Shown: piece by piece, positions 7,822-31,539 of the stretch
How positions within the stretch are numbered: position 1 is the first letter of the stretch
Layout: every line of letters starts with the position of its first letter
Assembly: GCA_039931065.1 (NCBI GenBank)
Contig: JBDTSP010000006.1
Span: 126,161 to 190,160, forward strand
Direction: 5' to 3'
Length of the DNA stretch: 64,000 bases
From: Pseudomonadota bacterium
GTDB taxonomy: Bacteria > Pseudomonadota > Gammaproteobacteria > Steroidobacterales > Steroidobacteraceae
Translations under genes and position numbers: made by a program
The notes under the pieces: model-generated
Database searches by the model: none
Told to the model about the DNA's origin: nothing
The model's input: only the letters and a program-made list of their open reading frames with translations

Positions 7822-9192
<1,371 letters not shown>

Positions 9193-10086: not shown

Positions 10087-10103
10087 TGTCAAGCCCGCCG
10101 ACA
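10087..10103 (-). promoter_or_regulatory. candidate enhancer-binding-protein site (UAS) for P1
   Basis: TGTCaagcccgccGACA (TGTC-N9-GACA). Its centre is 86.5 bp from the -12 GC of P1. The same motif sits at the same distance at two other sigma-54 promoters. Confidence 0.5.
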
Positions 10104-10114
10104 TCCGGGAGGCG

Positions 10115-11089
10115 TCAAGATGACAATAATCCTCGCGCCCTTAAGACGTTACGCATCGTCGTGAACCGGAAATCGCCCAGCAGCTGGCGCAGACGGCCCT
10201 CGCATTTCGAGAGATTCGTGTAGTGGCGGAAACGCGAAACCAGGCTGGTCTTCACCCGGGGTTGTTCGAAATCGATCTCCCACGGGTGCAGGTAGAAGGT
10301 GAATGGCAGGCGTTCCTGCTCGTTGATGCTGCGCAGGCCCGCGCGGGTGAACCAGTACGGCAGCAGGCGGAAGTAGCCGCCGCCCGACACCGGGACGCGC
10401 AGCGGCCCGACGGCCGCGGTGGACATCGGAAACTCGGCGATACGGCCACCCGAGGGAGCGTGCACGAATCCCGGTGCCCGGTCGGCACCCGGCATCCCGT
10501 AACGGTCGTGGCGGACCGGAAAGATGGACGAGTCATAAGCGAAGCCCTGCTCGATCAGGGTGTCGAGCGCCCAGCGCGAACGCGGCGTGATCGAAAAGCT
10601 GGCGGCGCGATAACCGATCACCGGCAGGCCGGTCAGGTCCTCGAGCAGCGCCTTGGAACGGTGGGTCTCTTCGGCGAAGACGGCCGGAGTTTGCCGGTAG
10701 ATGAGTTCATGCGAATAACCATGGCAGGCCACTTCATGGCCAAGCGAGGCAATACGTTTGACCAGCTGCGGCACTTTGTCCGCGACCCAGCCGAGCACGA
10801 AAAAAGTCCCCTTTATGCGCCGCTCGTCGAGCATGGCGAGCAACCGGTCAGTGCTCGCGGCGACGCGCGACTCACGGTCGCCCCAGGTCGAGCGCGGAAT
10901 CGCCGAGGCCAGCGCGGACACGTGGTAATAGTCTTCGACGTCGATCGTGAAGGCATTGGTGACGACCGCCTTCGACTCAACGGCTGAGGGGCCACGGACG
11001 CTGGAAGACGTCTTGGCGGCGTCGTTGACATCGTCGGCTGCAGCGCGCAGTTCAGTCCGCGGCATGGATAAGGTCGCCTTTGAATTCAT
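10115..11089 (-). CDS. polysaccharide deacetylase, XrtA/PEP-CTERM locus subfamily (TIGR03006-like, from memory)
   Basis: AFTIDVEDYYHV, GTFFVLGWVA, GHEVACHGYSHE, SGGGYFRLLPY and FYLHPWE are hallmarks of this subfamily. Confidence 0.85.
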   Translation of the reverse strand: MNSKATLSMPRTELRAAADDVNDAAKTSSSVRGPSAVESKAVVTNAFTIDVEDYYHVSALASAIPRSTWGDRESRVAASTDRLLAMLDERRIKGTFFVLGWVADKVPQLVKRIASLGHEVACHGYSHELIYRQTPAVFAEETHRSKALLEDLTGLPVIGYRAASFSITPRSRWALDTLIEQGFAYDSSIFPVRHDRYGMPGADRAPGFVHAPSGGRIAEFPMSTAAVGPLRVPVSGGGYFRLLPYWFTRAGLRSINEQERLPFTFYLHPWEIDFEQPRVKTSLVSRFRHYTNLSKCEGRLRQLLGDFRFTTMRNVLRARGLLSS

Positions 11090-11128
11090 GGATCGACGGG
11101 TCTCGTTTCAGGGAGTCAATCTGCATAA

Positions 11129-11144
11129 AGCACTGTTCGTACCA
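11129..11144 (-). promoter_or_regulatory. sigma-54 -24/-12 promoter (P4) for the deacetylase gene
   Basis: The minus strand reads TGGTACGAACAGTGCT with correct GG-N10-GC spacing. The -12 GC is about 41 nt upstream of ATG 11089. Confidence 0.6.
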
Positions 11145-11207
11145 ACTTTATTTATGCCAGTTTTTTCAGTAGCTTAAAGCTCATGCCTCCATTAATACAC
11201 CAATTCC

Positions 11208-11224
11208 TGTAAATGGCACCGACA
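11208..11224 (-). promoter_or_regulatory. candidate UAS for P4
   Basis: TGTAaatggcaccGACA (TGTA-N9-GACA). Its centre is 85.5 bp from the -12 GC of P4. Confidence 0.45.
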
Positions 11225-11344
11225 GACCTCCGGCCGAGGCCCATCGGGGACAACCCTGGCGGCGGTAATTGGGCCTGTCGAACGGCGCACGGAAAAGCGC
11301 CGGGCCGCACTGCAATATCCGCCATCACCCGCGGCTTCTGACCC

Positions 11345-12604
11345 ATGTATCGGATCGAGTGGATTGAACGACTGAAGCTCGGCGGCGTACCCGGCGCGCC
11401 TGACGCAACCCCCCTGCGGGTGAGCCCGGTCGTGATCAGCCTCGGGTTCACCAGTCTGTTCACGGACATATCGTCCGAGATGGTCAACAGCCTGTTGCCG
11501 GCGTGGCTGGTCCTGCACCTGCACATGAGCCCGATGCAATTCGGCGTCATCGACGGCCTCTACAACGGGTTCGCGATCGCGCTGCTGAGCCTCGCGGCCG
11601 GTTATCTGGCCGACCGCAGCGCGCGCCAGAAGGAAGTCGCGTTGGCGGGTTATTCGCTGTCCGGCCTGTGCAAGTTGCTGCTGCTCGGTGTCGGCGCGAC
11701 CTGGGGCTGGATCCTGCTGGTGGTTGGGCTCGACCGTGCCGGCAAGGGTATTCGCGCCGCGCCGCGCGATGCGCTGATCTCGCTCAACACGCCGCCGGCC
11801 GCCTACGCCATGGCGTTCTCGGTTCATCGCGCGATGGACGCATGCGGCTCATTGTTAGGTCCTATCACAGCCTTTGCATTGCTCGCGCTGCTACCCGGCG
11901 CCTACGACGCCGTCTGGGTGACCAGCTTTTTCTTCGCTGTGATCGGGGTCGCGGTGTTGTGGCTGTTCGTGCCGAGCGCCACGGCATTGGTCGCCGCGGC
12001 CCACTCCGCCGCTGTGACGCGGCCCGCCTGGTCGCCGTGGAAATCGCGCCGCTTCCTCGCGCTCACCGCGTGCGGCGCGCTGCTCGCCGGCACCACGATC
12101 AGCGACGGCTTTCTGTACCTGCTGCTGCAGCAGAAAAGCGCGGCTCCGACAGGTTTCTTCCCGCTGTTCTACGTGGTCACCGCCGCGGCCTACATGTTGC
12201 TGTCGATACCGGCCGGACGACTGGCCGATCGCACCAGCCGCAGCCGCGTGTTCCTCGGCGGCTATGCGGTGCTCGTGGTCCTGTACATCCTGCTGCTGTT
12301 CGTCGACCGCGTGAGCACCGTCGAACTGGTCGGCTGCCTGATCCTGTTCGGGCTTTTTTACGCCGGCACCGAAGGCATCCTGATGGCGCTCGTCAGCGTG
12401 GTGATTCCGCCCGCGCATCGCACCAGTGGCATCGCCATCGTGGGCACGGCGATCGGCATAACCAAACTACTGTCGTCGGTGGCTTTCGGCGCCTTGTGGC
12501 AGTGGATCGGCATACGCGGCGCGGTGATCACCTTCGTATTGATCCTGGGATTGGCGCTGGCGGTTTCGCTCGCGCTCATGAGGGCGACCGACAATGACTC
12601 GTAG
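11345..12604 (+). CDS. MFS transporter
   Basis: About 12 predicted hydrophobic segments. The motif GYLADRSARQK and the overall pattern are typical of the MFS_1 family. Confidence 0.85.
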   Translation: MYRIEWIERLKLGGVPGAPDATPLRVSPVVISLGFTSLFTDISSEMVNSLLPAWLVLHLHMSPMQFGVIDGLYNGFAIALLSLAAGYLADRSARQKEVALAGYSLSGLCKLLLLGVGATWGWILLVVGLDRAGKGIRAAPRDALISLNTPPAAYAMAFSVHRAMDACGSLLGPITAFALLALLPGAYDAVWVTSFFFAVIGVAVLWLFVPSATALVAAAHSAAVTRPAWSPWKSRRFLALTACGALLAGTTISDGFLYLLLQQKSAAPTGFFPLFYVVTAAAYMLLSIPAGRLADRTSRSRVFLGGYAVLVVLYILLLFVDRVSTVELVGCLILFGLFYAGTEGILMALVSVVIPPAHRTSGIAIVGTAIGITKLLSSVAFGALWQWIGIRGAVITFVLILGLALAVSLALMRATDNDS

Positions 12605-13745
12605 ACCCGCCGTCACTTTCGCGATCGTGTGTGTCGTCGCCGCGGGTGGTCTCGCCGCCTATCTACTTCACGCCGGCAAACGCATGCACCCGGCACCGGC
12701 CGCGCCCTCGCCTGCCGCAGCCGCTGCGCCCGCCGCACCGGCGGAAACCGAGTCCACAGTCACCGCCACTGACTCACCACCCGCTGCGCCCGCAGCCTCA
12801 GCCGCGCCAGCAGCGGCCGAATCGACTCCTTCAGCCCCTCATGGCGCGGTCGCCGCGCCCAGGAGCCAGCGCCTGTTTTTCCGCTACAACGGCGTCGACA
12901 ATCACTACGGCCGGGTCGCATGGGTGGAAACCGCCAATCTCGCGGACGTGCATTTCGTGGATTCACTGCGTTGCGAAGTCGTGCACGTGTCCGGCGGACA
13001 CGGCATCTGCCTGAGCGCGGAGCGCGGCGTATTCACGACGTACGCGGCGACCTTGTTCGACGCGCGGACTTTCGAGCAGCGCGGCACTTTCGCGCTCAAG
13101 GGAATTCCGAGCCGCACCCGCGTCTCGGCCGACGGCACACTCGCCGGACTCACGGTGTTCGTCTCCGGACACGGCTATTCCACGCTCGACTTCTCCACGC
13201 AGACGCTGCTGATAGATTTCGCGAGTGGTTCGGTACTCGCGGACCTCGAGAACTTCAAGGTCACGCACGACGGCGTGGCGATCGACAATGCGGATTTCAA
13301 TTTCTGGGGCATCACGTTCACGCCCGATGCGAAGAATTTCTTCGCCACGTTGTCGACCGGCGGCAAACACTACCTGGTGCGTGGCGACATCGCCGCGCGC
13401 AGCGCCATCGTCATCCATGAAAACGTCGAGTGCCCTTCCCTGTCGCCCGACGCGCGCCGCATTGCGTACAAGAAACGCCTCATGGTCGGCAATCGCGTGA
13501 TCTGGCAATTGCACGTGCTCGAATTGTCGAGCGGGCGTGAAATCGCGCTGTCGGAGAAGCGCAGCATCGACGATCAGCTCGAGTGGCTCGACAATCGCCA
13601 CGTCCTGTACTCGGTGCCGAGTGCCGATGACGGGTCGAGCCCGAGCACCGATGTCTGGGAAGTGGCCGTCGACGCCAGAAGCGCACCCCAGCTCTTCCTG
13701 CGCAACGCGTATTCGCCCGCGACCGCCCGCGGCGCCGCGCGCTGA
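12594..13745 (+). CDS. membrane-anchored protein with Ala/Pro-rich linker and TolB/PD40-like beta-propeller region
   Basis: N-terminal TM helix VTFAIVCVVAAGGLAAYLL, followed by a PAPAAPSPAAAAAPAAPA linker. A PD40-like motif LSPDARRIAYKK is present. It overlaps the MFS gene by 11 nt, suggesting an operon. Confidence 0.65.
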   Translation: MTRRPAVTFAIVCVVAAGGLAAYLLHAGKRMHPAPAAPSPAAAAAPAAPAETESTVTATDSPPAAPAASAAPAAAESTPSAPHGAVAAPRSQRLFFRYNGVDNHYGRVAWVETANLADVHFVDSLRCEVVHVSGGHGICLSAERGVFTTYAATLFDARTFEQRGTFALKGIPSRTRVSADGTLAGLTVFVSGHGYSTLDFSTQTLLIDFASGSVLADLENFKVTHDGVAIDNADFNFWGITFTPDAKNFFATLSTGGKHYLVRGDIAARSAIVIHENVECPSLSPDARRIAYKKRLMVGNRVIWQLHVLELSSGREIALSEKRSIDDQLEWLDNRHVLYSVPSADDGSSPSTDVWEVAVDARSAPQLFLRNAYSPATARGAAR

Positions 13746-13776
13746 AAAAAAAACGGGGCAGCCGAAGCTGCCCCGT
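13745..13776 (-). terminator. intrinsic terminator of the giant gene
   Basis: The minus strand reads ACGGGGCAGC-TTCG-GCTGCCCCGT followed by T9. It lies 25 nt downstream of the stop at 13801. Confidence 0.8.
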
Positions 13777-13800: not shown

Positions 13801-16800
13801 TCAGTTGCGCGTTACGGTCAACACATCGGTCCGCGTGTTACCGGCGGCATCACGCGCCGTGACCGTGAGGATGTTCACGCCGGTCAACACCGAGATCGTG
13901 CCCGTCGACCACGACGTCGTACCCGTGGCATTGCCGCTGCCGCCACGGTTGTTGGTCCAGCTGACCTGCGTGACCGCGACGTTGTCGGAGGCCGAACCGC
14001 CGAGCGTGATCGTCGAGGCAGTCTGCGTCCGCGTCGAATTGCTGGTGGGTGACGTGATCGTGATCGACGGCCGAGTGGTGTCCGTGAAGGTCACGGTCAA
14101 CGTATCCGTCTGCGTATTGCCCGCGGCATCGCGCGCGGTGACCGTAAGGACGTTAGAACCGGTCTGCAACGCGAGATTGCTGACCGACCAGGAGGTGGTA
14201 CCCGTGGCGGTGCCACTGCCACCGCGGCTGTTCACCCACGTGACCTGCGTGACGGCGACGTTGTCGGAGGCCGTGCCGGAAAGCGTGATCGGTGAAGCCG
14301 TGACCGCGAGCGTGGTCGCACTGGTCGGGCCCGTGATCGTCACCACGGGCAAGCTCGTGTCCGGGTTGTACGTGACGCTGATCGAATCCGTGCCCGTATT
14401 GCCGGCCGCATCGCGCGAGCTGACCGTGAGCACGTTGACGCCCGACTGCAGCACGATGCCGCTGACGGTCCATGCCGTGGTGCCCGACGCGGTGCCGCTG
14501 CCGCCGCGGTTGTTGGCCCACGTGACCTGCGTGACGCCGACCGCATCCGATGAGGTGCCGCCGAGGTTGAGCGAAGCCGCCGTGACCGTGGTGCTCGATG
14601 CGCTGGTCGGCGATGTAATCGTAACCACCGGCGCCGTCGTGTCCGGCGTGTAAGTGACCGTGAGGATGTCCGTACTGGTGTTGCCGGCCGCGTCACGCGC
14701 GGTGACGGTGATCACGTTCGAGCCGGTCAGCAGCACGATGCCACTCGCCGACCACGCAGTCGTGCCGGTTGCCGTGCCGCTGCCACCGCGATTGTTCACC
14801 CAGGCGACTTGCGTGACACCCACCGCATCCGAAGCCGTTCCACCGATATTGATCGGAGTTGTCGCGACCGTCGTGGTCGCGGAGCTTGTCGGTGAAGTGA
14901 TCGTCACGGAAGGCGCCGTCGTGTCCGGTGCGTTGTAGGTCACGGTGAGCGAATCGGCGCTGCTGTTGCCAGCCGCGTCGCGCGCCGTGACCGTGAGGAT
15001 GTTGGCGCCCGACTGCAGGACGACGCCCGAGACCGACCAGCTGCCGGTTCCCGTGGCGTTGCCGCTACCGCCGCGATTGTTTGACCAGGAGACCAGCGTG
15101 ACGCCGACCGCATCGGTGGCGGTGCCACCGAGTGCGAACGGCGTGCTGGTCACCGTGGTGGTCGTGGCGCTGGTCGGCGTGGTGATCGTGACCACCGGCG
15201 CGGTCGTATCCGACGACCCGCCGCTGGTGTTGAACACCACGTCCACCCAGTAGTTTTCACCGTTGTACGTGTCGGTCGGGAACACGCTGCTGCTGCCGTA
15301 CTTGTACAGGCCGTTGGAACCGCCCGAACCGTCCTGCGGCGCAAGCAACGGACCGCTCGTCACGCCGCTGGTCGTGAAGTAGTTGTCGTCGCCCGTGTAG
15401 AAGCCCGAGCTCGTGTGATACGAAACGACGTAGTCCGTGTTCGCCGTGAGCGCCACCGGCGAGGCCAGGGTCTGCACCTGCCATCCCGACGCGCTTTCAC
15501 CCGCGAACGTGACCTGTCCTAACAAGGTGCCGCTTGCGCTCCACAGGCTGCCGACATGCGTGCCGGTATTCTGCGAGTGCTTGAAGAACCGCAGGGCCGT
15601 GACGTTGCCGGCGGCGCTGGTGCGGAACCGCACGCCGAGCTCGACCGAGTTCGAGTCCGCGTCCACGCCACCGGAGGGCGTCTCGGCGGGCCAGATCGAG
15701 CACGGGCAGGCTGCGCCGCCGACCGTGAACGAAACCGTCGTCGGCGAGCTCTGCAGGTTGCCGCTGTCGTCGACCGCACGGACACGGACCGTCTGGGCTC
15801 CCGTGGTCGGCGTCGTCCAGCTGTAAGACCAGGTGCCGCGACCCGTGGCCGGATGCCACGTGGTACCGCCATCGGTCGACACTTCGACACCCGCGACCTG
15901 ACCACCCACGTCGCTCGCGCTGCCGCTGATGACGAGACCGTTCTGCGGGACATTGGCTCCCGCGACCGGCGCGATGATGGTCACCGTCGGCGCTGCGCTG
16001 TCCGACGAAGGACTCTGGGCCGAGAGGCCCGCCTGCAGCGAGGCCGGCTGTACGTTCATGTCGGCGAACAGGTTCACCGTCGCCTGCTGCATGACCAGGC
16101 TGACCGGCGTGCCTGCGCGATCGTGATTCGCGTCGAGACCCCAGGCCCACTGCACCGTGCCGGCGCCGAACACCCGGGCGCCGCTCGCGTGCTTGTACAT
16201 CGTCAACGCATGGTTGGCGGTGTCCGAGGCGTAGGTCGAACCGAAGTCCTGGAGCTTGTCGACGTTGCTCACGGTCGTATCCGACAGGCGGAACAGACCG
16301 GCCGGGCGAGCGCCGTTGTCGAGATCCGAATCCCACTCGTACCCAAGCGTGCCGTTCGGCAGCGTCAGCGTGTTCGTGCCCGTGAGATTCGCGGCAGCAG
16401 TGCCGCGCCACAGGCGCAGCTTGCCTTCAGCGGCCGGGATCACGATCGCCGACGTTCCGGAATTCACCGTGAAGACCGTGCCGGTCAAACCGTTTTCCGG
16501 GCGGCCGCCATCGGACGGCGGGCTGAAGCGCGGATCGCGCCACGTGCCGGTCCACTCGGCGCTCGGATCGAGCTTGCCGTTGAAATGCGTCTCCTTGTAC
16601 GAGACCAGCGTGCGGTAAGGCGTACCCGAACCGTCGATGCTGTTCTCCCAGCGGGTCTTCCAGAACACTTCGTTGCCGCTGAAGAACGCCATGTTGACGC
16701 CCGCTGCACGCGCGGCTTCGACGTTGGCGCGCTGCTGGCCGGACCAGTACTCGTCGTGGCCGGTCGAGATGAACGCGCGATGGCTGGTCAGCAGGTTGGC

Positions 16801-19800
16801 GGCACGATCCGTGTCGACACCCGTGATGTACGTGACGTCGTAACCGTTCGACTCGAGCCAGCGGATCATCGGGTACTCGGCGTTGAACACCCAGTCCTGG
16901 CCACCGGCTTCGCCACGCGTGGCGAACGGACGGTTGTAGCTCACCTTGTAGGCGCGACCCGGGTTGGTGCCGGGCGAACCCACGTACAGGCTGTTGCCGC
17001 CGTAGGTGTTGTAAGCCTGCCAGGTGGTGTCCGAAGTCTGGAAGACCATGTCCGAGGTGCTCGCGTCGTTGCGGACGATGAACGCGATGTGGCTGGCACC
17101 TCCCGTGTCGGTACGCACGACTTTTGCGAAGTAGACGCCGGAGGTCGCATTTGCAGGCACCGTCCATGAGCCCGAAACCGCCCAGTTGCCGCAATCGATG
17201 AGACCGGTCGAAGGCTGCGTCAGGCAGTTCGGCTGGTTCTGCGGCAGGCTCGCCGTCGGGTTGACGGTCGTGATCTTGCGCGCGCCCAGGCCGCCGTAAT
17301 AACCCATGCGGTAGATGTCGAAGCGGTAGTTAGTGGCATTGGTATCCACCTTGAACTGCACCGTGCCGCCGCGGTTCACGCTGATCTGCGTGGCGAAGCC
17401 CTGGATGCTGGCGTCGCCGGCGCCGTTGATGTCCCACTCGCTCGACGGGTTACCCGTCAGGCAGTTTTCCGCGGTGATCGCGTTGGCGGCGCACGGGCCA
17501 CCGGCCGCGGCCGTGGTGAACGACCAGCTGTCGTTGGCGATCAGTGCATTGTTGGCCGCGTCCTTGACGCGCGGATCGGTCGCGCCACCGCGCACAGTGA
17601 CCGTGTAGATGGCCGAGTTGACCAGCGCGCTGGTCGGCGTGAGCGTGGCGACGTTGCCCGAGTACGAAACGCTCGCCGGGATCAACGTGTTGCCGGCGTT
17701 ACGCAGCTCGATCGTCGAGCTGTTGATCGTGCTGGCATTCATCGCCTCGCTGAAGGTCACCAGGACCGCGCCGTTGAGCGCGACATTGGTGGCACCGCTC
17801 GCCGGCTGACGCAGCGTGATCGTCGGGGCCGTCGTGTCCGGGCCCGTGACGTTCTGGAACACGAGGTCGACCCAGTAGTTGGTCGCGCCGAACGAGCTGG
17901 TCGGGAAACCGCCGCTCGCGCCGTAGGTGTACACACCGTTGCCGCCCGCCGCCGGGTCACTCAACGCGTGCAACACGCCGTTGTCGACGCCGGTCGAGGC
18001 GAAGAAATTCGCGTTGACGGAGTAGCCGCCGTTCGGCGCGAAATACGAGGCCACGTAGGTGGTGTTCGCATCGATCGCAACCGGCGACGAGAACAGGACT
18101 TCCTGCCAGCCAGTCGCGGTTTCGCTGCCGAAGGTCGCCTGTGCGAGCAAGGTGCCGGTCGAAGTCCACAACTTGCCGACATGTGTGCCGGTGTTGCTCG
18201 GGCCCTTGTAGAAGCGGATGCCCGCGACGCTGCCACTGGTGTCCGTGCGGAACTTCACGCCCAGCTCGACGGCACCCGTATCGCTTTCGGACGCAGTCGC
18301 AGGCGTAGTCGTGCTGGGCCAGAGGGTGAGCGTGGTGACCGACGAATTCGTGGTCGTGAACGACCAGCTGTCGTTCGCCGCCAGCGCATTCAACGCAACG
18401 TCCTTGACCCGCGGATCGGTCGCACCGCCGCGCACTGTCACCGTGTACACGGTGTTCACCGCGAGCGCAGCGCTCGGGGTCAGGGTCGCGACGTTCGTGG
18501 CCGCGTTGTAGCTGACCGCGGCCGGAACCAGGGTCACGCCGTTGCGCAGTTCGATTGAGCTCGTGCTGATCGTTGCGGCGCTCATTGCCTCGTTGAAGCC
18601 GACAGTTACGGTGGTCGCGAGCGCGACTCCCGTGGCGCCCGAAGCGGGCGTGCGCGCAGTGACCGTGGGCGGCGTCGTGTCCGCGGTCGGCGTGTACGTG
18701 ACGGTCAACGTGTTGGTCGAGGTGTTGTTGGCCGCATCGCGCGCCGTCACGGTGATGACGTTGGTGCCGGACAGCAGCGTGATGTTGGAGGCCGTCCAGG
18801 ACGTCGTGCCGGCGGCGGTACCCGAACCACCGCGGTCATTGGTCCAGGAGACCTGCGTGACGCCGACGTTGTCGGAGGCCGAGCCGCCGATCGCGAGCGG
18901 AGTCACGGTCGTGCTGTGGGTCGGGGTCGCGACCGGGGTAGAAATGGTCACGGTCGGCGCGGTCGTGTCGGCGACACCGCCCGAGGTGGTGTCGAACACC
19001 ACGTCCACCCAGTAGTTAGTGCCCTGCCAGGTGGAGGACGGGAATACGCTGCCCGGAGCGTAGGTGTAGACACCATTGCCGCCGGCCGCCGCGGTGCTGA
19101 GCGCGTGCAACGCGCCGTTGTCGACTCCGGCCGAAGTGAACTGGCCGGAAGTGGCCGAGTACCCGCCCGCGGGGGCGTGATAAGAGGCGACGTAGGTCAC
19201 GCCTGCCGAGACCGGCACGGCCGTGGTGAACAGGACCTGCTGCCAGCCGCTCGCCGTTTCGGTTGCGAAAGTCGCCTGCGCGAGTGCCGTCCCCGTGGAC
19301 GACCACAACGTGCCGACGTGGACACCGGTGTTCGAGGCGCCCTTGTAGAAGCGGATGCCCTTGATGAATCCATTGACGTCGCTGGTGAACTTCAGGCCGA
19401 GTTCGACGGACGTCACGTCCGAATCCGACGCGATTGCCGGGGTATCGGTCGCGCTGAAAATCGTGCACGGGCAGGTCGGGGCCGAAGCCGTCGTGAACGA
19501 CCAGGTGGCGTTCGCGGCCATGGCATTGCCCGACATGTCCTTCACACGCGGGTCGCTGCCGCCGCCGCGCACGGTCACGGAATACGTGGCGCCGCTCGAG
19601 AGTGCGCTCGAGGGCGTGAACGTCGCGGAAAGTGTGCTGGCGCTGTAGGCGACGCTGCCGGCGACGAGCGCGTTGCCCGCGTCGCGCACTTCGAACGTGC
19701 TACTGGTGACCGAGGCCGGATCGAGCGATTCGTTGAAGGTCGCGCGGATGGGCGTGACCGACGCGACGCCGGTCGCACCGGCGGCCGGAAGGCGCGTGGT

Positions 19801-21702
19801 GACGGTCGGGCCGACCGTGTCGATCGCGTAGCTGGCCGAGTAGCTGCCGCTCGCGGCCGGGAACACCGCGTACTCGACGCCCTTGACGTTCATGATCTCG
19901 TAAGTGACGTCGGCGCCGTTGCGCAGCAGGCTGGTGAGGAAACGCGTCCCGGAGCGCCACGGCAACATGCCGGAGAGGCCATTTGCGCCCGTCGCCTGCG
20001 TGACCGTGAAACTGAGCACGTTCGACGTGAAGCTCATCGAGCCGAAGGTCGAATTGCCGCGGCCATCGAGCCAGGTGAGCATCTGCCGGCCGGAGACGAC
20101 CGGAACGTTGCGCGCGAGTGCCGCTTCAACCGTCGTCGTCGACTGGTCCATGAAAGGCTGATCGGTGTGCGCGTTGATCGTGTAGACGCCGTACTGTTCT
20201 TCCGCGCCGGTGGCGCGATCAAGCAGGGTATTCGGGGTGAACGGGTATTGCTGATCGGACTCGTCGGTCATCTGTGTGACCGCCTGGTAGACGTCGATCA
20301 GGCTGCCGTCGAGGTCGGCAAAACGCATCGGCATGGCCGAGCCGGTGAAGTGTCCGGGCGTGTTCTGCACCCAGTCGCCGGGCCAGTAGTAGTAAGACGT
20401 ATCGAGACGGATGCCATTGGCGAGCTGCACTTTCGCGGCCGACGCCCAGTCGCTCCACACGATGCAGTGATGACGTTCGGTGCTGAGCGGCGAGACGCTG
20501 GCGAACTTGTTGAAGAACGCGAGCTTCTGGTCCGTGTATCCCTGCGCGAGCGAGCTCTGTGTGAAGTCCACGCAGGTGCCGCTTTCGAAGGTGTTGACGT
20601 GCAGGCCGATTTCGAACCCTTGTGCCTGGTACGCCGAGGCCTGGGTGTTGGTCAGCGCGCCGTCGGTGAACACGTAGGAAGTGCCGCGGATACATTCCCA
20701 GTTCGCAACGGAGCAGCCCGCGGGGCTCATCGCGAGGAACTGGTCGAAGCGCTGCGCCGTGCCGCCGCCCTGCGCGGTGAACAGGAAGCCGTGGTCATCG
20801 CCGCTCATCAGGACGACCGCGCGATGCGCGTTCGGGAAGTACCAGAAGCGCGGCAACGGCTTGCGGTCCGAATTCATGTCGGTGATCAGGTTTGCGAGGA
20901 AGCGCTGCTGTTCGTCGGCCTGCGGAATCGCGACCTTGCTGCGATTGATCCAGTCAGGCTGCGGATCGCTGGCCGACGCGCCGAAGAACATGTCGTCGGA
21001 GCGGCGCGGCGCGATGCCGTCGCGTTCCTGGCCTACCCAGGCCGGATTGCCCTGGCGCGTGTAAACGATGGAAGTCGCGAGGTCGAACATGAAAGCCGCG
21101 GCCTGGCCACCGCTCGCGCCGACGCTGCGCAGCGTGACCGCGGGGTTGGCGGTAGCGGTCGTCGCGGTCGAATACAAGGTGGCGATCGAGGTCGCCCCGG
21201 CGAGTGTGCTCAGCTGGGCACTGCCATGGAACTGCAGCGTCTGACCGATGATGCCGGCACCGGACTTGGTGGAATTGTCGACAAGTAGATAGCCGTTGGA
21301 GAGCGTCGTCGCTCCCGAATTGATGCCGAGCAGGCTGGCCAGCTGCGGCGCGGGGTCCATCGCGATCAGGTTGCCACCGGCGGTTACCCAGGTGCTCAAC
21401 ATCGAAGCCTGGGTGGTCGTGACCGACTGCTTCGAGAGGATCACCACGTCATAGTTATTGAGCGTGCTCGCGGTGACGGCGCCGATTTCGGCGACCGCGA
21501 ATTCGTTGAATCCTTCGGTGCGAAGGATCTCGGCGAAGAACTTGCCGAAGTTCTGATTCCCGTTGGTGATGACCAGAATCGGCCCTCCGGGCCCCTGGTT
21601 CGGATCCGCGTGTGCAGCCCCAAGGGGAGCTGTGATCGCGGCCAAAATCAGCAGCAGGGAACGGGCGAAGTTCTTGATATTCATGTTTTTCAAGGATTCC
21701 AT
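13801..21702 (-). CDS. 2633-aa secreted multidomain protein. Order: N-terminal region of unknown function, 3x Big5/SbsA-type Ig, 3x DUF4082, an N,N-dimethylformamidase-large-subunit-like domain, and 7 further Ig-like domains
   Basis: Single uninterrupted ORF. Signal peptide MNIKNFARSLLLILAAITAPLGAAHA. The internal domain repeats are listed as separate features. There is no PEP-CTERM tail; the protein ends ...TDVLTVTRN. Confidence 0.9.
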   Translation of the reverse strand: MESLKNMNIKNFARSLLLILAAITAPLGAAHADPNQGPGGPILVITNGNQNFGKFFAEILRTEGFNEFAVAEIGAVTASTLNNYDVVILSKQSVTTTQASMLSTWVTAGGNLIAMDPAPQLASLLGINSGATTLSNGYLLVDNSTKSGAGIIGQTLQFHGSAQLSTLAGATSIATLYSTATTATANPAVTLRSVGASGGQAAAFMFDLATSIVYTRQGNPAWVGQERDGIAPRRSDDMFFGASASDPQPDWINRSKVAIPQADEQQRFLANLITDMNSDRKPLPRFWYFPNAHRAVVLMSGDDHGFLFTAQGGGTAQRFDQFLAMSPAGCSVANWECIRGTSYVFTDGALTNTQASAYQAQGFEIGLHVNTFESGTCVDFTQSSLAQGYTDQKLAFFNKFASVSPLSTERHHCIVWSDWASAAKVQLANGIRLDTSYYYWPGDWVQNTPGHFTGSAMPMRFADLDGSLIDVYQAVTQMTDESDQQYPFTPNTLLDRATGAEEQYGVYTINAHTDQPFMDQSTTTVEAALARNVPVVSGRQMLTWLDGRGNSTFGSMSFTSNVLSFTVTQATGANGLSGMLPWRSGTRFLTSLLRNGADVTYEIMNVKGVEYAVFPAASGSYSASYAIDTVGPTVTTRLPAAGATGVASVTPIRATFNESLDPASVTSSTFEVRDAGNALVAGSVAYSASTLSATFTPSSALSSGATYSVTVRGGGSDPRVKDMSGNAMAANATWSFTTASAPTCPCTIFSATDTPAIASDSDVTSVELGLKFTSDVNGFIKGIRFYKGASNTGVHVGTLWSSTGTALAQATFATETASGWQQVLFTTAVPVSAGVTYVASYHAPAGGYSATSGQFTSAGVDNGALHALSTAAAGGNGVYTYAPGSVFPSSTWQGTNYWVDVVFDTTSGGVADTTAPTVTISTPVATPTHSTTVTPLAIGGSASDNVGVTQVSWTNDRGGSGTAAGTTSWTASNITLLSGTNVITVTARDAANNTSTNTLTVTYTPTADTTPPTVTARTPASGATGVALATTVTVGFNEAMSAATISTSSIELRNGVTLVPAAVSYNAATNVATLTPSAALAVNTVYTVTVRGGATDPRVKDVALNALAANDSWSFTTTNSSVTTLTLWPSTTTPATASESDTGAVELGVKFRTDTSGSVAGIRFYKGPSNTGTHVGKLWTSTGTLLAQATFGSETATGWQEVLFSSPVAIDANTTYVASYFAPNGGYSVNANFFASTGVDNGVLHALSDPAAGGNGVYTYGASGGFPTSSFGATNYWVDLVFQNVTGPDTTAPTITLRQPASGATNVALNGAVLVTFSEAMNASTINSSTIELRNAGNTLIPASVSYSGNVATLTPTSALVNSAIYTVTVRGGATDPRVKDAANNALIANDSWSFTTAAAGGPCAANAITAENCLTGNPSSEWDINGAGDASIQGFATQISVNRGGTVQFKVDTNATNYRFDIYRMGYYGGLGARKITTVNPTASLPQNQPNCLTQPSTGLIDCGNWAVSGSWTVPANATSGVYFAKVVRTDTGGASHIAFIVRNDASTSDMVFQTSDTTWQAYNTYGGNSLYVGSPGTNPGRAYKVSYNRPFATRGEAGGQDWVFNAEYPMIRWLESNGYDVTYITGVDTDRAANLLTSHRAFISTGHDEYWSGQQRANVEAARAAGVNMAFFSGNEVFWKTRWENSIDGSGTPYRTLVSYKETHFNGKLDPSAEWTGTWRDPRFSPPSDGGRPENGLTGTVFTVNSGTSAIVIPAAEGKLRLWRGTAAANLTGTNTLTLPNGTLGYEWDSDLDNGARPAGLFRLSDTTVSNVDKLQDFGSTYASDTANHALTMYKHASGARVFGAGTVQWAWGLDANHDRAGTPVSLVMQQATVNLFADMNVQPASLQAGLSAQSPSSDSAAPTVTIIAPVAGANVPQNGLVISGSASDVGGQVAGVEVSTDGGTTWHPATGRGTWSYSWTTPTTGAQTVRVRAVDDSGNLQSSPTTVSFTVGGAACPCSIWPAETPSGGVDADSNSVELGVRFRTSAAGNVTALRFFKHSQNTGTHVGSLWSASGTLLGQVTFAGESASGWQVQTLASPVALTANTDYVVSYHTSSGFYTGDDNYFTTSGVTSGPLLAPQDGSGGSNGLYKYGSSSVFPTDTYNGENYWVDVVFNTSGGSSDTTAPVVTITTPTSATTTTVTSTPFALGGTATDAVGVTLVSWSNNRGGSGNATGTGSWSVSGVVLQSGANILTVTARDAAGNSSADSLTVTYNAPDTTAPSVTITSPTSSATTTVATTPINIGGTASDAVGVTQVAWVNNRGGSGTATGTTAWSASGIVLLTGSNVITVTARDAAGNTSTDILTVTYTPDTTAPVVTITSPTSASSTTVTAASLNLGGTSSDAVGVTQVTWANNRGGSGTASGTTAWTVSGIVLQSGVNVLTVSSRDAAGNTGTDSISVTYNPDTSLPVVTITGPTSATTLAVTASPITLSGTASDNVAVTQVTWVNSRGGSGTATGTTSWSVSNLALQTGSNVLTVTARDAAGNTQTDTLTVTFTDTTRPSITITSPTSNSTRTQTASTITLGGSASDNVAVTQVSWTNNRGGSGNATGTTSWSTGTISVLTGVNILTVTARDAAGNTRTDVLTVTRN
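13804..15210 (-). repeat. five tandem ~94-aa (~282-nt) Ig-like repeats at the C-terminus of the giant protein
   Basis: The unit is DTTAPxVTITxPTSxxTxxVTxxPxxLGGTASDxVGVTQVxWxNNRGGSGxATGTTxWSxSxxxLxxGxNxxTVTARDAAGNxxTDxLTVTY. The DNA-level periodicity is visible, e.g. GTGACCTGCGTGAC near 13965, 14245, 14525, 14810 and 15095. A sixth dispersed copy lies at about 18690-18975. Confidence 0.85.
15216..15708 (-). repeat. DUF4082 copy 3 (approximate bounds)
   Basis: CPCSIWPAE...SVELGVRFRTSAAGNVTALRFFK...GWQVQTL...NYWVDVVFN. Confidence 0.7.
16011..17500 (-). other. N,N-dimethylformamidase large-subunit-like (DUF6605-type) domain of the giant protein (approximate bounds)
   Basis: NYRFDIYRMGYYGG, TWQAYNTYGGNSLY, ISTGHDEYWSGQQR and MAFFSGNEVFWKTRWE are, from memory, typical of this family. 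Confidence 0.6.
17850..18335 (-). repeat. DUF4082 copy 2 (approximate bounds)
   Basis: AVELGVKFRTDTSGSVAGIRFYKGPSNTGTHVGKLW...NYWVDLVFQN. Confidence 0.7.
18985..19473 (-). repeat. DUF4082 copy 1 (approximate bounds)
   Basis: CPCTIFSATD...SVELGLKFTSDVNGFIKGIRFYKGASNTGVHVGTLW...NYWVDVVFD. Confidence 0.7.
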
Positions 21703-21757
21703 TGCGGAAAGTCAGCCAACAGAGAGGGGGGCACAACGTTGTGTCCTACCCCCTCCA

Positions 21758-21773
21758 AGCAAAACCCGCGCCA
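21758..21773 (-). promoter_or_regulatory. sigma-54 -24/-12 promoter (P3) for the giant gene
   Basis: The minus strand reads TGGCGCGGGTTTTGCT, the best match in the window to TGGCACG-N4-TTGCW. The -12 GC is about 57 nt upstream of ATG 21702. Confidence 0.7.
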
Positions 21774-22094
21774 ATGTGAGACCCCCGTCACGGGAACCCC
21801 CCTCCCGACCCTCAAACTGTGAGCCGAATCGCAACCTTAGGTGCCCGCCGCAGGCCCGGCGGGGGCCGACGAGGTCCGGATGGCCCCAGACGGATGCGCG
21901 GCGCGGCAAAGCTGTAAAGTTCTCCGACGCAAAATCGGATGCTTGCCGACTTGCGTCGCGCGATATGTGCAACCGCCAGGTGGCAAGAATTTCGACACAA
22001 ACAAAGTGCCAATCGCGACAAGGTGCGACGCCAATCACATACCTATGCTTCGCGCGCCTTCAACGGCTGGCTAGCACAAACACAAGAGGTTCAA

Positions 22095-27603: not shown

Positions 27604-28459
27604 GGCGCTGCCCGTGACGACAACCGCAGACACCGACCGGCCGATGGTGACGCTGATAAGGCCGAGCAGCGGCTGGTTCGACGTCGACCTGCGCGCCGTG
27701 TGGCGTTACCGCGAACTGTTGTTCTTCCTGGTGTGGCGCGAAGTGAAGATCCGCTACAAGCAGGCGGCGCTGGGCGTGGCCTGGGCGATCGTGCAGCCGT
27801 TGTTCACGGTGCTCATCTTCACGACCATCTTCGGCATCTTTGCGCGGTTTCCGTCCGATGGCCTGCCCTATCCGGTGTTCGCGCTCGCCGCGGTCCTGCC
27901 GTGGACGTACTTCGCCGAAGCATTGCGCCGTGGCGCGACCGGACTCGTGGCCGACGCCGATCTGGTCCGCAAGATCTACTTCCCGCGTCTGATCATTCCG
28001 ATCGCGGGCGTCACCTCACCGCTGGTCGACTTCCTGTTTGGCCTGCTGATCCTGATCGGCGTGATGTTCTGGTATGGCATCGTTCCGGGCTGGACCATCC
28101 TGCTGCTGCCCTTCTGGCTGTTCATCACGCTCGCCCTGGCGCTCTCGATTGGCCTGTGGCTCGGACCGATCAACGTGCGTTACCGCGACGTGATGCATAC
28201 GTTGCCGTTCGTCACGCAGGTGTGGATGTTCGCGACGCCGATCGTCTATCCGCTCAGCATGATCCCACCGAAATGGCAGGCCCTGTACAGCATCAATCCG
28301 ATGGTCGGAATCATCGAAGGGTTTCGCTGGTCGCTGCTCGGCACGGGCATGCCCAACCTGCTGTCGATCGGCATCAGCCTTTCCATCATCGTGATCGCCC
28401 TGGTGGGCGGTGCTATCTACTTCCGCAAAATGGAGCGGTCCTTCGCGGACGTCATATGA
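27593..28459 (+). CDS. wzm: ABC-2 type polysaccharide export permease
   Basis: YRELLFFLVWREVKIRYKQAALGVAWAIVQP signature and 6 hydrophobic segments. Alternative in-frame starts are GTG 27614 and ATG 27644. Confidence 0.85.
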   Translation: MRPEALPVTTTADTDRPMVTLIRPSSGWFDVDLRAVWRYRELLFFLVWREVKIRYKQAALGVAWAIVQPLFTVLIFTTIFGIFARFPSDGLPYPVFALAAVLPWTYFAEALRRGATGLVADADLVRKIYFPRLIIPIAGVTSPLVDFLFGLLILIGVMFWYGIVPGWTILLLPFWLFITLALALSIGLWLGPINVRYRDVMHTLPFVTQVWMFATPIVYPLSMIPPKWQALYSINPMVGIIEGFRWSLLGTGMPNLLSIGISLSIIVIALVGGAIYFRKMERSFADVI

Positions 28460-29706
28460 GTTCAGGAATCGCCATCCAGGCCCGCGGCCTCGGCAAACGT
28501 TATCTCCTTGGCGCAGCCGGAGCCCGCCACAACTCGCTGCGCGACGCATTGGTGTCGGGCGCGAAGTCGTTGATCGGTGCCAACAAGAAAACCGCCTTCA
28601 AGGAATTCTGGGCGCTCAAGGACGCCAACTTCGACATCGGCCACGGCGAAAACGTCGGCATCGTCGGGCTGAACGGCGCGGGCAAGAGCACTTTGCTCAA
28701 GATGTTGTCGCGCATCACCGAGCCCGCCACCGGCTCCGCCCGCATCGAAGGCCGCCTGGGCGCGTTGCTCGAAGTAGGTACGGGTTTCCACGGCGAACTC
28801 ACCGGCCGCGAGAACGTCTTCCTGTACGGCTCCATCCTCGGCATGCGCAAGGAAGAAGTACGCGCGAAGTTCGACGCCATCGTGGCGTTCTCTGGCATCG
28901 AGAACTTCATCGACACGCCGGTCAAACGATATTCGAGCGGTATGTACGTGCGCCTCGCCTTCTCGGTTGCGGCGCATCTCGAACCCGACATCTTGCTGCT
29001 GGACGAAGTTCTGGCCGTCGGCGACCTGGCCTTCCAGCGCAAGTGCATCGAACACGCCAAGGAGCTGCAGAAGCGCGACGCGACCATCCTGTTCGTCTCG
29101 CACAACATGTTCAGCATCAAGACGATGTGCGACCGGGTGATCTACCTGCGTCAGGGTCAGATCCAGTTCGACGGCAGCGTCGAAGGCGGCATCGAGCTGT
29201 ACGAAAAGGATTGCCGCATGGCGGCGCTGGCCTGGACAGAAACCAAGCCTGAGGAATGGCCGATCTTCATCACAAACTGCGAGCTGCGCGATGAACGTGG
29301 CGCGCCGAAGACCTTGTTCGAATTCGGCGAACGCATGCACGTGCGCCTGCACTACGACACGCGGCAGACGGTCGAAGATCCGAATTTCATCGTCGCGTTC
29401 GTTCGCTCCGATGGCGTCGCCGCGTGCAACTACAGCACCGAGCTCGACGGGCTGAATCTGGGCCAGGTCAACGGCGCCGGTTACATCGATCTCGAATTGC
29501 CGCCGCTCAAGCTCGTTTCCGAGATGTACACGATCTCGGTGATCATCCGCGAAAAGGGTTTCCAGCAAATCCTGTGCGGACAGATGGCCGGCACGTTCCA
29601 CGTCAAACACGACCTGTTCAACACGCACTTCGGTGTGTTCCACGAACCGGGGCAATGGTCGGCGAACGAGACCCCCAACGCAAAGGTGGCCGGTGCCAAG
29701 CGTTGA
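28456..29706 (+). CDS. wzt: polysaccharide export ABC ATP-binding protein with C-terminal Wzt-type carbohydrate-binding domain
   Basis: Walker A GLNGAGKST, signature YSSGMYVRLAF, Walker B ILLLDE. About 160 extra C-terminal residues look like a beta-sandwich. ATG 28456 overlaps the wzm stop (ATGA). The track ORF start at 27700 is an off-frame extension. Confidence 0.9.
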   Translation: MSSGIAIQARGLGKRYLLGAAGARHNSLRDALVSGAKSLIGANKKTAFKEFWALKDANFDIGHGENVGIVGLNGAGKSTLLKMLSRITEPATGSARIEGRLGALLEVGTGFHGELTGRENVFLYGSILGMRKEEVRAKFDAIVAFSGIENFIDTPVKRYSSGMYVRLAFSVAAHLEPDILLLDEVLAVGDLAFQRKCIEHAKELQKRDATILFVSHNMFSIKTMCDRVIYLRQGQIQFDGSVEGGIELYEKDCRMAALAWTETKPEEWPIFITNCELRDERGAPKTLFEFGERMHVRLHYDTRQTVEDPNFIVAFVRSDGVAACNYSTELDGLNLGQVNGAGYIDLELPPLKLVSEMYTISVIIREKGFQQILCGQMAGTFHVKHDLFNTHFGVFHEPGQWSANETPNAKVAGAKR

Positions 29707-30742
29707 CGTCGTAATCCCCTGTTACAACTACGCGAAGTACCTGCCACGTTGCATCGACAGCGTCCTCTCGCAACAAGGCGTCGAGGTTCGCGCGCTCATC
29801 ATCGACGACTGCTCGACGGATGACACACCCGCGGTCGGCGCGGCACTCGCACAACGCGATTCCCGCGTGTTGTACCGGCGTCACGCGAAGAACATGCGGC
29901 ACATCGCGACCTACAACGAAGGGCTCATCGATTGGGCGCAGGCCGACTATGTCCTGCTGCTTTCCGCCGATGACCTGCTGGCGCCACTCGGCCTGCAACG
30001 CGCGACCCGCGTCATGGAAGAAAATCCGAACGTGCACATGACGTACGGCATGGCGCTACTGTTCACCGAAGACGCGCAAGTCACGGACCTCCCCGCCGAT
30101 GCCAGCGCTGCCACTCACGCAATCGTGCGCGGCGCGGACTTCCTGCGCCGCTCGATCGTGGGAAATCCGGTGCCCACGCCCTCGGCCATCGCGCGTACGC
30201 GCATCCAGCACAAGGTCGGCGGATATTCCGCGGCGCTGCCGCACACCGCCGACATGGCCATGTGGATGCGGTTCGCCGTACAGGGTGACATCGGCGTGGT
30301 TCCCCAGGTGCTCGCTTACAAGCGAACCCACGCCACCAACATGAGCATCGCGTACGCCGCGCAACCGCTCGGCGATTTCCGCGAACGGGTCGATGCCTGT
30401 GACGAACTGCTGGGGAACGACGCCGGCGCTGGCGCGCCGACGCGGATCGAAGCGCGCGAGATCATCGGGAACCAGGTGTTCTGGTGGGCGAGCTCGTTGT
30501 TCGACGCCGGTGAAACGGCTGGTTGCGACGAGGCACTCAAACTCGCCGCGGAACTCGCGCCCAGTCTGCGCAGCTCCCCGGCCTGGCGGCGCCTCAAGTT
30601 GAAGCGTGTATTACCCGCCCCCGTGCGCCGCGCCATCGTTTCGCTTTCCGATCGCGCGCGCGGCACGGCATCGCCGGCCGCTGCGCTCTCGCCGACCCGC
30701 CAGATCGGCTGGTGGCCGGAAAATACAGCCGGCGCGAAGTAA
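29693..30742 (+). CDS. family 2 glycosyltransferase
   Basis: VDVVIPCYNYAKYL, DDCSTDDT and LLSADD motifs. GTG 29693 is preferred over the track start GTG 29633, which would overlap wzt by 74 nt. Confidence 0.8.
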   Translation: MPSVDVVIPCYNYAKYLPRCIDSVLSQQGVEVRALIIDDCSTDDTPAVGAALAQRDSRVLYRRHAKNMRHIATYNEGLIDWAQADYVLLLSADDLLAPLGLQRATRVMEENPNVHMTYGMALLFTEDAQVTDLPADASAATHAIVRGADFLRRSIVGNPVPTPSAIARTRIQHKVGGYSAALPHTADMAMWMRFAVQGDIGVVPQVLAYKRTHATNMSIAYAAQPLGDFRERVDACDELLGNDAGAGAPTRIEAREIIGNQVFWWASSLFDAGETAGCDEALKLAAELAPSLRSSPAWRRLKLKRVLPAPVRRAIVSLSDRARGTASPAAALSPTRQIGWWPENTAGAK

Positions 30743-30750
30743 TCGGTCGG

Positions 30751-31410
30751 TCAGACCGCTCGCCGGAAGCGCGTCCGCGCGCTCACCGCTACGCCTAACA
30801 AACCGAGCGCGAACAACGCCAGCGTGCCGGGTTCGGGGACGGCCTTGTAGAGGTAGACGCCTTGAGAGATTTCACGAATGTTCGTAGCGAGGCCGCCCAT
30901 GATCGTAAAGCTGTCCGAGCCGAATGGCGGGCTGTCGATGATGCCGCTGATGCCGTGGACCAGCCCGTCGGAACCGACATAGGTCCCCCGCGTGAGCCCA
31001 TTCAGGATGTTTTCAAAGGCCGGGCCCCAGTCGAACTGGATCGTGGGCTCGAGCACGCCGAATGCGGTTGCGCCGTGACCGGAAGCCATCGGAAACGCGG
31101 CGGAGTAGCCGTTGAGCGCCCCGGGCGGCAATCCGGCCACTTCGTAGAAGAGATCGCGGACGTCGTCGCGCGACGCCCAGGTGTAACCGGTGAGATCGAC
31201 GTCCGAACTCGAGCCGTTCGACGCCAGCACTCCGGAGCAATCGCCGGTGGCCGCGCTGCACACCGCGGAGGTGTCGTCCCAGGAGCGATAACGGGTGTCG
31301 TTGACGTCGAGCCATTCGCGACCCGAGGCGTCTATGTAGATAGGACCCGCGAAGGCCGCGCTTCCGACCAGACCCAGCACAGCCAACAGACTTGCCGCAT
31401 TCCTTTGCAT
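30751..31410 (-). CDS. PEP-CTERM sorting domain-containing secreted protein
   Basis: C-terminus VPEPGTLALFALGLLGVAVSARTRFRRAV. Signal peptide MQRNAASLLAVLGLVGSAAFA. ATG 31410 has RBS GAGG. Confidence 0.85.
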   Translation of the reverse strand: MQRNAASLLAVLGLVGSAAFAGPIYIDASGREWLDVNDTRYRSWDDTSAVCSAATGDCSGVLASNGSSSDVDLTGYTWASRDDVRDLFYEVAGLPPGALNGYSAAFPMASGHGATAFGVLEPTIQFDWGPAFENILNGLTRGTYVGSDGLVHGISGIIDSPPFGSDSFTIMGGLATNIREISQGVYLYKAVPEPGTLALFALGLLGVAVSARTRFRRAV

Positions 31411-31441
31411 TTTCGAACCTCGCTTAGTGATCACTTCGTAC

Positions 31442-31457
31442 TGCATCTTTCGCACCA
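31442..31457 (-). promoter_or_regulatory. sigma-54 -24/-12 promoter (P2) for the second PEP-CTERM gene
   Basis: The minus strand reads TGGTGCGAAAGATGCA with correct GG-N10-GC spacing. The -12 GC is about 33 nt upstream of ATG 31410. Confidence 0.6.
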
Positions 31458-31522
31458 ACCCGGAGGCATCGTTGCGCGTTCAGTTGCTTAGCCCGCATTG
31501 CGGAAAAAAAGCGACGCTCACG

Positions 31523-31539
31523 TGTAATAAACCTCGACG
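31523..31539 (-). promoter_or_regulatory. candidate UAS for P2
   Basis: TGTAataaacctcGACG (TGTA-N9-GACG). Its centre is 87.5 bp from the -12 GC of P2. The adjacent inverted repeat GGGCGAA-T-TTCGCCC lies at 31544-31558. Confidence 0.45.

Follow-up and report, generated by a model that had tools for sequence, protein, structure and literature searches.

The regulatory element studied here corresponds to one already described, the PEP-CTERM box. According to the text of Haft, Paulsen, Ward & Selengut 2006 (BMC Biol 4:29; PMC1569441), a search of the upstream regions of proteobacterial PEP-CTERM genes returned a 17-nt motif 1 with the 3' end TTTACA, followed by a spacer with a mean of 62.8 nt (standard deviation 10.6, range 32-92) and then by a 17-nt sigma-54 motif, an arrangement that precedes 99 of 167 proteobacterial PEP-CTERM genes. 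The same text describes a few further copies before other genes, none in coding regions, and occasional repeated copies. It also reports that the phylogenetic profile of motif 1 is exactly that of PrsK, PrsR and PrsT (13 of 13 proteobacterial genomes and none of the others), and it predicts motif 1 to be the docking site of PrsR upstream of sigma-54 promoters. Dependence on both RpoN and PrsK-PrsR is documented for the PEP-CTERM genes of Zoogloea (PMC9012009). In Aquincola, transcription of pepA is RpoN1-dependent, with a start site mapped downstream of -24/-12-like motifs and a predicted enhancer upstream of the gene (PMC9850573). A second described regulator, GlrR, recognizes the 18-bp consensus TGTC-N10-GACA, which occurs in sets of three (PMC3045617). 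Here we analyze a 64,000-nt stretch of a gammaproteobacterial genome (GCA_039931065.1, contig JBDTSP010000006.1, positions 126,161 to 190,160; hereafter the window), in which a first-pass annotation had described a shared 17-bp motif upstream of three sigma-54 promoters, P1, P4 and P2. Because these sites fit the PEP-CTERM box in length, sequence, strand, spacing (64, 63 and 65 nt) and context, the shared motif is the PEP-CTERM box of 2006, and its detection is a rediscovery, not a new element. Our comparison with the 2006 logo draws on the text of that paper.

The PEP-CTERM box in the window and in related loci

All three sites are found in the window (Table 1), and the distances from their centers to the -12 GC given by the first-pass annotation (86.5, 85.5 and 87.5 bp) are reproduced from the coordinates. 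Read on the sense (minus) strand, the consensus is YGTCGR-N5-TTTACA, located 63-65 nt upstream of the -24/-12 element at P1, P4 and P2. The earlier list of sites was incomplete, as two further exact matches to the plus-strand pattern TGTM-N9-GACR had been overlooked: TGTAAAGTTCTCCGACG at 21913-21929, in the intergenic region upstream of a gene for a giant secreted protein, and TGTAAAGAACTTCGACA at 61760-61776, 12 nt after the stop codon of prsT and upstream of an exopolysaccharide (EPS) export gene. The window holds six box copies, and 6/6 are intergenic. The 3' end on the sense strand is TTTACA at P4, at the giant-gene copy that we call box B and at the export site, TTGACA at P1 and ATTACA at P2.

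The loose pattern TGTM-N9-GACR has 17 matches in the window compared to 8.7 expected (2 of 100 shuffles reach 17), a density of about 1.3e-4 matches per position per strand. Since this enrichment is mild, the significance of the motif rests on position: by our estimate, the chance that three of four promoters carry the loose pattern within a 3-bp window is of the order of 1e-10, before correction for the post-hoc choice of pattern. A sharper pattern, GTCG-N6-TTTACA, is matched exactly at three places of the window, each of them intergenic, where a naive estimate predicts about 0.05, and with up to two mismatches it has 56 matches versus 31 expected, a number reached in none of 100 shuffles. 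When the spacer of this pattern is lengthened to N7, it recovers no box site in the window and shows no enrichment.

We then turned to 160 related loci, 80 genome loci fetched via the deacetylase encoded in the window and 80 metagenome loci fetched via the export protein, mostly metagenome-assembled genomes (MAGs) of Steroidobacteraceae and soil metagenome contigs. In five of them (L003, L004, L005, L006 and L008) the deacetylase promoter retains the two half-sites of the box and, with a gap that is always 63 nt, TGGTACG-N4-TGCT, while the six central bases of the box differ. The orthologues of the P1 box in L003, L004 and L005 have gaps of 64, 64 and 63 nt, again with the half-sites kept and a variable core. 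Positional conservation at orthologous promoters, on which the first-pass annotation had staked its proposal, is therefore present. The spacing within the box is also specific. Over the 1.3 Mb made up by the window and 80 relatives, GTCG-N6-TTTACA with at most one mismatch has 109 matches, 38 of them exact, compared to 27-40 matches and 0-2 exact ones for the N5, N7 and N8 controls; a strong sigma-54-like site lies 30-110 nt downstream of 60 of the 109 N6 matches versus 1-3 matches in the controls. Across the 160 related loci, the box is carried by 31 of 43 open reading frames (ORFs) with a PEP-CTERM tail and by 36 of 2778 other ORFs (odds ratio 197, p = 1.7e-44), which bears out the anticipated enrichment at PEP-CTERM genes.

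A logo built from 48 sites outside the window reads YGTCGR-N5-TTTACA and has sharp borders at 17 nt. Its positions 1 (T/C) and 6 (A/G) are informative although they were unused in site selection, and the A after TGTN and the C before GAC that had been singled out in the three window sites correspond to the near-invariant positions 13 and 5. With the report of Haft et al. 2006 and the conservation and enrichment in relatives behind it, the first-pass view of the motif as an upstream activating sequence (UAS) for an enhancer-binding protein at sigma-54 promoters stands.

The distance between box and promoter follows the helical repeat of DNA. Strong -24/-12 sites occur after the box at gaps of 50-53, 61-66 (mode 63), 73-77, 83-86 and 94-96 nt only; the gaps between these classes have none, and the background rate amounts to 0.017 sites per gap value. 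Of the 22 gaps that do not belong to the main mode, 21 differ from it by an integral multiple of the 10.7-bp helical turn, give or take at most 2.5 bp (binomial p = 1.4e-6). Alignment of the gap-63 promoters uncovered an element in the AT-rich spacer, YAANNNNTTGATW, which is the reverse complement of the integration host factor (IHF) consensus WATCAANNNNTTR quoted in PMC3045617. With at most one mismatch, this IHF-like site is found in 28 of 54 composite promoters in this orientation versus 5 of 54 in the opposite one. It lies 21, 30-33, 41-43 or 52 nt after the box and 18-20, 29-31 or 40 nt before the TGG, such that both arms change length by whole helical turns only. Apart from the IHF-like block, the spacers resemble one another no more than random sequences would (identity 0.27 versus 0.26 expected), so that spacer length is conserved and spacer sequence is not. 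An IHF site between enhancer and sigma-54 promoter is a classical arrangement; our literature search found no work linking IHF to PEP-CTERM-box promoters. The P4 orthologues of L004 and L005 have better IHF-like matches than P4 of the window, and P2 also has a weaker IHF-like copy at the same offset.

The window, with a G+C content of 64%, is an XrtA/PEP-CTERM EPS locus whose gene identities were assigned with NCBIfam equivalog models and their cut-offs. Its closest relatives are MAGs of the Steroidobacteraceae, a gammaproteobacterial family, with deacetylase identities of at most 86%. The EPS export gene is the first gene of a long minus-strand EPS operon that also encodes the XrtA chain-length determinant, a tyrosine autokinase, a FemAB-like protein, glycosyltransferases and an amidotransferase. 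No exosortase gene was identified among the ORFs scanned at the thresholds used.

Table 1. Regulatory sites and genes of the window (gaps run from the box to the TGG of the sigma-54 element; sequences are those of the sense strand)
Feature	Coordinates	Strand	Sequence	Remarks
PEP-CTERM box (motif 1) of P1	10087..10103	-	TGTCGGCGGGCTTGACA	gap 64 nt
IHF-like site of P1	10042..10054	-	CAAGTAGTTGATT	perfect match to YAANNNNTTGATW; 32 nt after box, 19 nt before TGG
Sigma-54 -24/-12 element P1	10007..10022	-	TGGCACATGTAGTGCA	
PEP-CTERM box of P4	11208..11224	-	TGTCGGTGCCATTTACA	gap 63 nt
Weak IHF-like site of P4	11164..11176	-	TAAGCTACTGAAA	2 mismatches; standard offset
Sigma-54 -24/-12 element P4	11129..11144	-	TGGTACGAACAGTGCT	
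PEP-CTERM box of P2	31523..31539	-	CGTCGAGGTTTATTACA	gap 65 nt
Sigma-54 -24/-12 element P2	31442..31457	-	TGGTGCGAAAGATGCA	
PEP-CTERM box A (distal, degenerate copy)	21981..21997	-	TGTCGAAATTCTTGCCA	kept in L164 and L165 (TGTCGATTTTCTTGGCA)
PEP-CTERM box B	21913..21929	-	CGTCGGAGAACTTTACA	kept in L164 and L165 (CGTCGAAGTTCTTTACA)
CRP/Clp-type palindrome, giant gene	21818..21833	-	TGCGATTCGGCTCACA	between box B and sigma-54 element; kept, always 44 nt before TGG
Sigma-54 -24/-12 element P3	21758..21773	-	TGGCGCGGGTTTTGCT	top score in window; GG and GC kept in L164 and L165
PEP-CTERM box between prsT and EPS export gene	61760..61776	-	TGTCGAAGTTCTTTACA	
CRP/Clp-type palindrome, export gene	61712..61727	-	TGCGAAGCAAGTCACA	starts 32 nt after export box
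CRP/Clp-type palindrome	22024..22039	+		
CRP/Clp-type palindrome	31634..31649			
GlrR-like response regulator gene	7822..9192			sole enhancer-binding protein in window; downstream of histidine kinase gene
PEP-CTERM protein gene driven by P1	9296..9961	-		TIGR02595 match; C-terminal tail VPEPATLGLLGLGLLGTWFGSKRRQRKA
XrtA-system polysaccharide deacetylase gene driven by P4	10115..11089	-		no PEP-CTERM protein; TIGR03006, 384.5 bits (cut-off 276)
Giant secreted protein gene	13801..21684	-		2633 residues, no PEP-CTERM tail; start at 21684 backed by alignment with relatives
PEP-CTERM protein gene driven by P2	30751..31410	-		NCBIfam scan and C-terminal tail
XrtA/PEP-CTERM system EPS export gene	61007..61642	-		TIGR03027, 225 bits (cut-off 180)
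prsT (tetratricopeptide repeat protein of Prs system)	61788..63995	-		cut by window end; TIGR02917, 397 bits (cut-off 312)

The giant-gene and EPS-export regions

For the promoter of the giant gene (P3), we aligned the region with those of two syntenic relatives, L164 and L165, which were reached via homologues of the N-terminal domain of the giant protein. Four elements are kept in all three: box A, box B, the palindrome TGCGA-N6-TCACA and the -24/-12 element. Box B lies 139 nt before the TGG in the window and 129 nt before it in both L164 and L165, outside the spacer rule for motif 1 (range 32-92), and box A of the window is separated from the TGG by 207 nt. The first-pass annotation had held that P3 lacks the motif at the position seen in the other promoters, has there the inverted repeat CCCGCCG-N6-CGGCGGG (21844-21863) and may therefore answer to another activator. 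The motif is in fact present, in the two conserved copies farther upstream, and because of these P3 need not use another activator. The inverted repeat exists as described; we rejected it as a second activator site, as it is not conserved in L164 and L165. A variant matching the pattern at seven of eight positions, also listed there at 21981-21997, is likewise real and turns out to be the conserved second box, box A. An alternative -24/-12 candidate, TGGCTGACTTTCCGCA at 21703-21718, does not have its GG and GC kept and abuts the start codon, and the element at 21758-21773 is therefore preferred. In place of an IHF-like site, P3 has the CRP-like palindrome. Judged by these conserved elements, the giant-gene promoter most probably answers to the same activator as the others, which would act from farther away across a spacer that has a CRP-type site but no IHF-like site.

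The giant protein itself begins with about 600 residues (window 19885-21684, minus strand) that form a very widespread domain, found at 55-62% identity in proteins of Burkholderiales, cyanobacteria, actinobacteria and others. Its homologues are often joined to DUF4082 and immunoglobulin-like domains, and the domain falls outside all NCBIfam families.

The box in front of the EPS export gene lies 132-134 nt upstream of the ATG in seven relatives with 76-92% protein identity (L083-L088 and L090), where the half-sites are unchanged and the core is variable. It is absent from more distant relatives (57-70% identity) and is thus kept in the closest clade only. No GG-N10-GC (sigma-54) element is found in the export intergenic region. 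Downstream of the box follows the palindrome TGCGA-N6-TCACA, which at least 15 related loci also have ahead of the export gene; as at P3, this CRP-like palindrome takes the place of the IHF-like site.

This palindrome recurs elsewhere in the locus. Exact copies number three in the window, all intergenic, compared to about 0.08 expected by a naive estimate, and between the P2 gene and the gene at 31847(+) there is also a perfect TGTGAAGTGCATCACA. The recurring CRP/Clp-type palindrome suggests that a second regulator may co-control the EPS operon, the giant protein and an acetyltransferase operon. The leader of the export gene (window 61643-61760; L083-L091) also has blocks of strong conservation, among them GCTCTGTTACCCTTCG at about 35 nt from the ATG; these blocks persist in the box-less relatives L089 and L091. 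No Rfam family was found in the window, these blocks included; read by eye, one of them may contain an extended -10 element (TGtTACCCT).

It is conceivable, if rather doubtful, that the box in Steroidobacteraceae is more than a PEP-CTERM enhancer and has been wired together with the CRP/Clp-type site at the giant gene and at the XrtA EPS-export operon, with a sigma-54-independent action at the latter. If this were true, PrsR or another box binder would also act independently of sigma-54, for example as a repressor, co-activator or architectural factor, and would couple the output of matrix proteins to that of polysaccharide.

The protein that binds the box

Based on the sequences, their conservation, their enrichment and their geometry, we infer the binding protein, the role of IHF and the activation of these promoters as follows. 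The sites very probably serve as UAS of the XrtA/PEP-CTERM regulon, and their most likely binder is PrsR, a response regulator of the NtrC family. All 11 of the non-GlrR enhancer-binding proteins tested from related loci are PrsR (TIGR02915, 582-704 bits, cut-off 502.6). In L092, prsK is followed by prsR and, after an interval of 1.5 kb, by prsT and the export gene; since the window ends inside prsT, prsK and prsR probably sit just beyond its right end. A PrsR dimer would bind the imperfect 17-bp inverted repeat YGTCGR-N5-TTTACA, and phosphorylation of PrsR by PrsK would lead to assembly of the active AAA+ oligomer, a step established for the family. The predicted IHF-type bend in the AT-rich spacer would then let the oligomer meet the sigma-54 holoenzyme at the -24/-12 element, where ATP hydrolysis would open the promoter, as is also established for the family. 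Box, bend site and promoter would each have to occupy a fixed face of the helix, with only whole-turn changes tolerated, which would account for the near-invariant spacing. In this Steroidobacteraceae genome the regulon would include the two PEP-CTERM protein genes, the XrtA polysaccharide deacetylase and the giant secreted protein.

A number of points weigh against this proposal. The window encodes neither PrsK nor PrsR, and the presence of PrsR in this organism is deduced from its relatives and from prsT. Our literature search found no published footprint or gel-shift for PrsR on the box, which leaves the assignment of PrsR to the box a prediction. The identification of the spacer element with IHF comes from a consensus match. 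The right half of box A is degenerate (TTGCCA), and the conserved export box does not fit a simple enhancer model because no -24/-12 element lies within 110 nt of it. Finally, EPS synthesis in Zoogloea is unaffected in prsK and prsR mutants (PMC9012009).

In a rival account, the boxes would bind another factor, for example a different NtrC-family activator or a repressor that recognizes TGT-N11-ACA, with PrsR acting elsewhere or not at all. In its favor, the export-region box has no sigma-54 partner, our literature search found no direct binding data for PrsR, and some relatives have two PrsR paralogues (about 585 bits and about 660-700 bits). We nevertheless consider it improbable, given that the motif has the same profile as PrsK, PrsR and PrsT in 13 of 13 proteobacterial genomes and none of the others in the text of Haft et al. 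2006, that the genetic dependence in Zoogloea is on PrsK/PrsR and that prsR genes stand beside box-bearing loci in many relatives.

We give even less credence to the GlrR orthologue of the window, which the first-pass annotation had named as a possible binder and which would on this account bind the boxes and activate the four sigma-54 promoters. It is the only enhancer-binding protein within the window, its gene adjoins P1 and P4 with synteny kept in L003-L006, L008, L073 and L057, E. coli GlrR sites read TGTCG...CGACA and thus have the left half-site in common with the boxes, and the P1 box is a perfect TGTC-N9-GACA that is kept in L003-L005. However, this protein is 58% identical to E. coli GlrR and retains its recognition helix, RNRT(D/E)FYKLLSRH. 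It is an unlikely binder because the site of E. coli GlrR is the 18-bp TGTC-N10-GACA in triplicate, and three N10 sites are visible upstream of E. coli glmY, examined as a control. The boxes, in contrast, are 17 bp long, asymmetric (TGTCG / TGTAA) and mostly single: P1, P4 and P2 have one each, and the giant gene has two. Extending the spacer of the box pattern by 1 nt gives a pattern that is not enriched, and in 1.86 Mb exact N10 sites are not associated with sigma-54 sites, such that we rejected GlrR-type sites as an alternative regulon signal in the related loci. In addition, the recognition helix of PrsR (SRPTLYDLL) differs from that of GlrR, and according to the text of Haft et al. 2006 the motif goes with PrsR from genome to genome. 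That the shared motif arose by chance or from base composition is the least credible account and can be practically dismissed: the pattern was defined post hoc and in its loose form is only about 2-fold enriched in the window, but the motif recurs in independent data sets with the same orientation and spacing and again at PEP-CTERM genes, and the spacers are fixed in length while random in sequence.

Several observations concern the two regulator families themselves. The GlrR orthologue shows 97-99% identity across a set of MAGs (L003, L004, L005, L057 and L073) in which deacetylase identity is only 58-86%, and its synteny beside the XrtA deacetylase is kept (window 7822-9192 and 5718-7184). 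No GlrR target triplets (TGTC-N10-GACA) were found within the window. Its sole exact TGTC-N10-GACA, TGTCGCTTAACGAGGACA at 31652-31669 between the P2 gene and the 31847(+) gene, is probably not meaningful because we estimate that about 0.7 such sites are expected by chance. In L157 (4566-4621), two TGTC-N10-GACA sites are located 38 bp apart and 75-113 nt upstream of a sigma-54-like element; these may be a genuine site for GlrR or another activator in a distant relative. PrsR proteins fall into two classes on TIGR02915, one at about 660-700 bits and one at about 582-593 bits, the latter usually encoded directly beside the deacetylase gene. Both classes occur in one locus in L024, and L073 has the lower-scoring class together with the GlrR orthologue; L044, L053, L054 and L057 are further cases.

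Comparison with known systems

The type of element has been known since 2006; what is new are further instances in an uncultured lineage and details of promoter architecture, and the current understanding is not overturned. Our analysis demonstrates that a genuine regulon signal can be recovered by reading sequence alone, adds well-resolved PEP-CTERM box instances from an uncultured soil lineage and assigns four transcription units of the locus (two PEP-CTERM proteins, the deacetylase and the giant protein) to what would be one sigma-54/PrsR-type circuit. We found no biochemical test of the enhancer of this regulon in the literature. The oriented IHF-like site and the whole-turn spacers seen in relatives provide concrete and inexpensive starting points for experiments on this regulon, which controls the formation of floc and biofilm matrix, and strict whole-turn quantization of both arms would make these promoters a natural series for DNA-looping geometry.

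Two other systems resemble the one described here. The UAS of NifA is TGT-N10-ACA (16 bp) and is used with IHF at nif promoters. Like the boxes, it has a TGT...ACA dyad that precedes the sigma-54 start by about 100 bp and, as proposed for the boxes, an intervening IHF bend and a dependence on the face of the helix. The dyad in the window is TGT-N11-ACA, however, one base longer than that of NifA, and the N5 form of the box pattern is not enriched; moreover, PrsR is a response regulator and not a GAF-domain protein, and the regulons differ. The sites of GlrR (QseF/YfhA) at glmY and glmZ of Enterobacteriaceae are, like the boxes, predicted or known sites of an NtrC-family response regulator at sigma-54 promoters with known or predicted use of IHF, the left half-site TGTCG is common to both, and a GlrR orthologue is encoded in the window. 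In contrast, GlrR sites are 18-bp symmetric TGTC-N10-GACA sequences in threes, whereas the boxes of the window are 17 bp long, have the right half TTTACA and are usually single.

Compared to the PEP-CTERM box as described in the text of Haft et al. 2006, there is no difference in kind. Both are 17 nt long, with a sense 3' end TTTACA and a spacer of about 63 nt before the -24/-12 element; both are intergenic and lie upstream of single-gene PEP-CTERM operons in a proteobacterium with prsT; and both have occasional repeated copies and occasional sites before non-PEP-CTERM genes. Beyond that text, the window and its relatives add the oriented IHF-like site in the spacer, the whole-turn quantization of both arms, box copies at long range (129-139 nt) that go together with a CRP-like palindrome, and a conserved copy without a sigma-54 promoter before the EPS-export operon.

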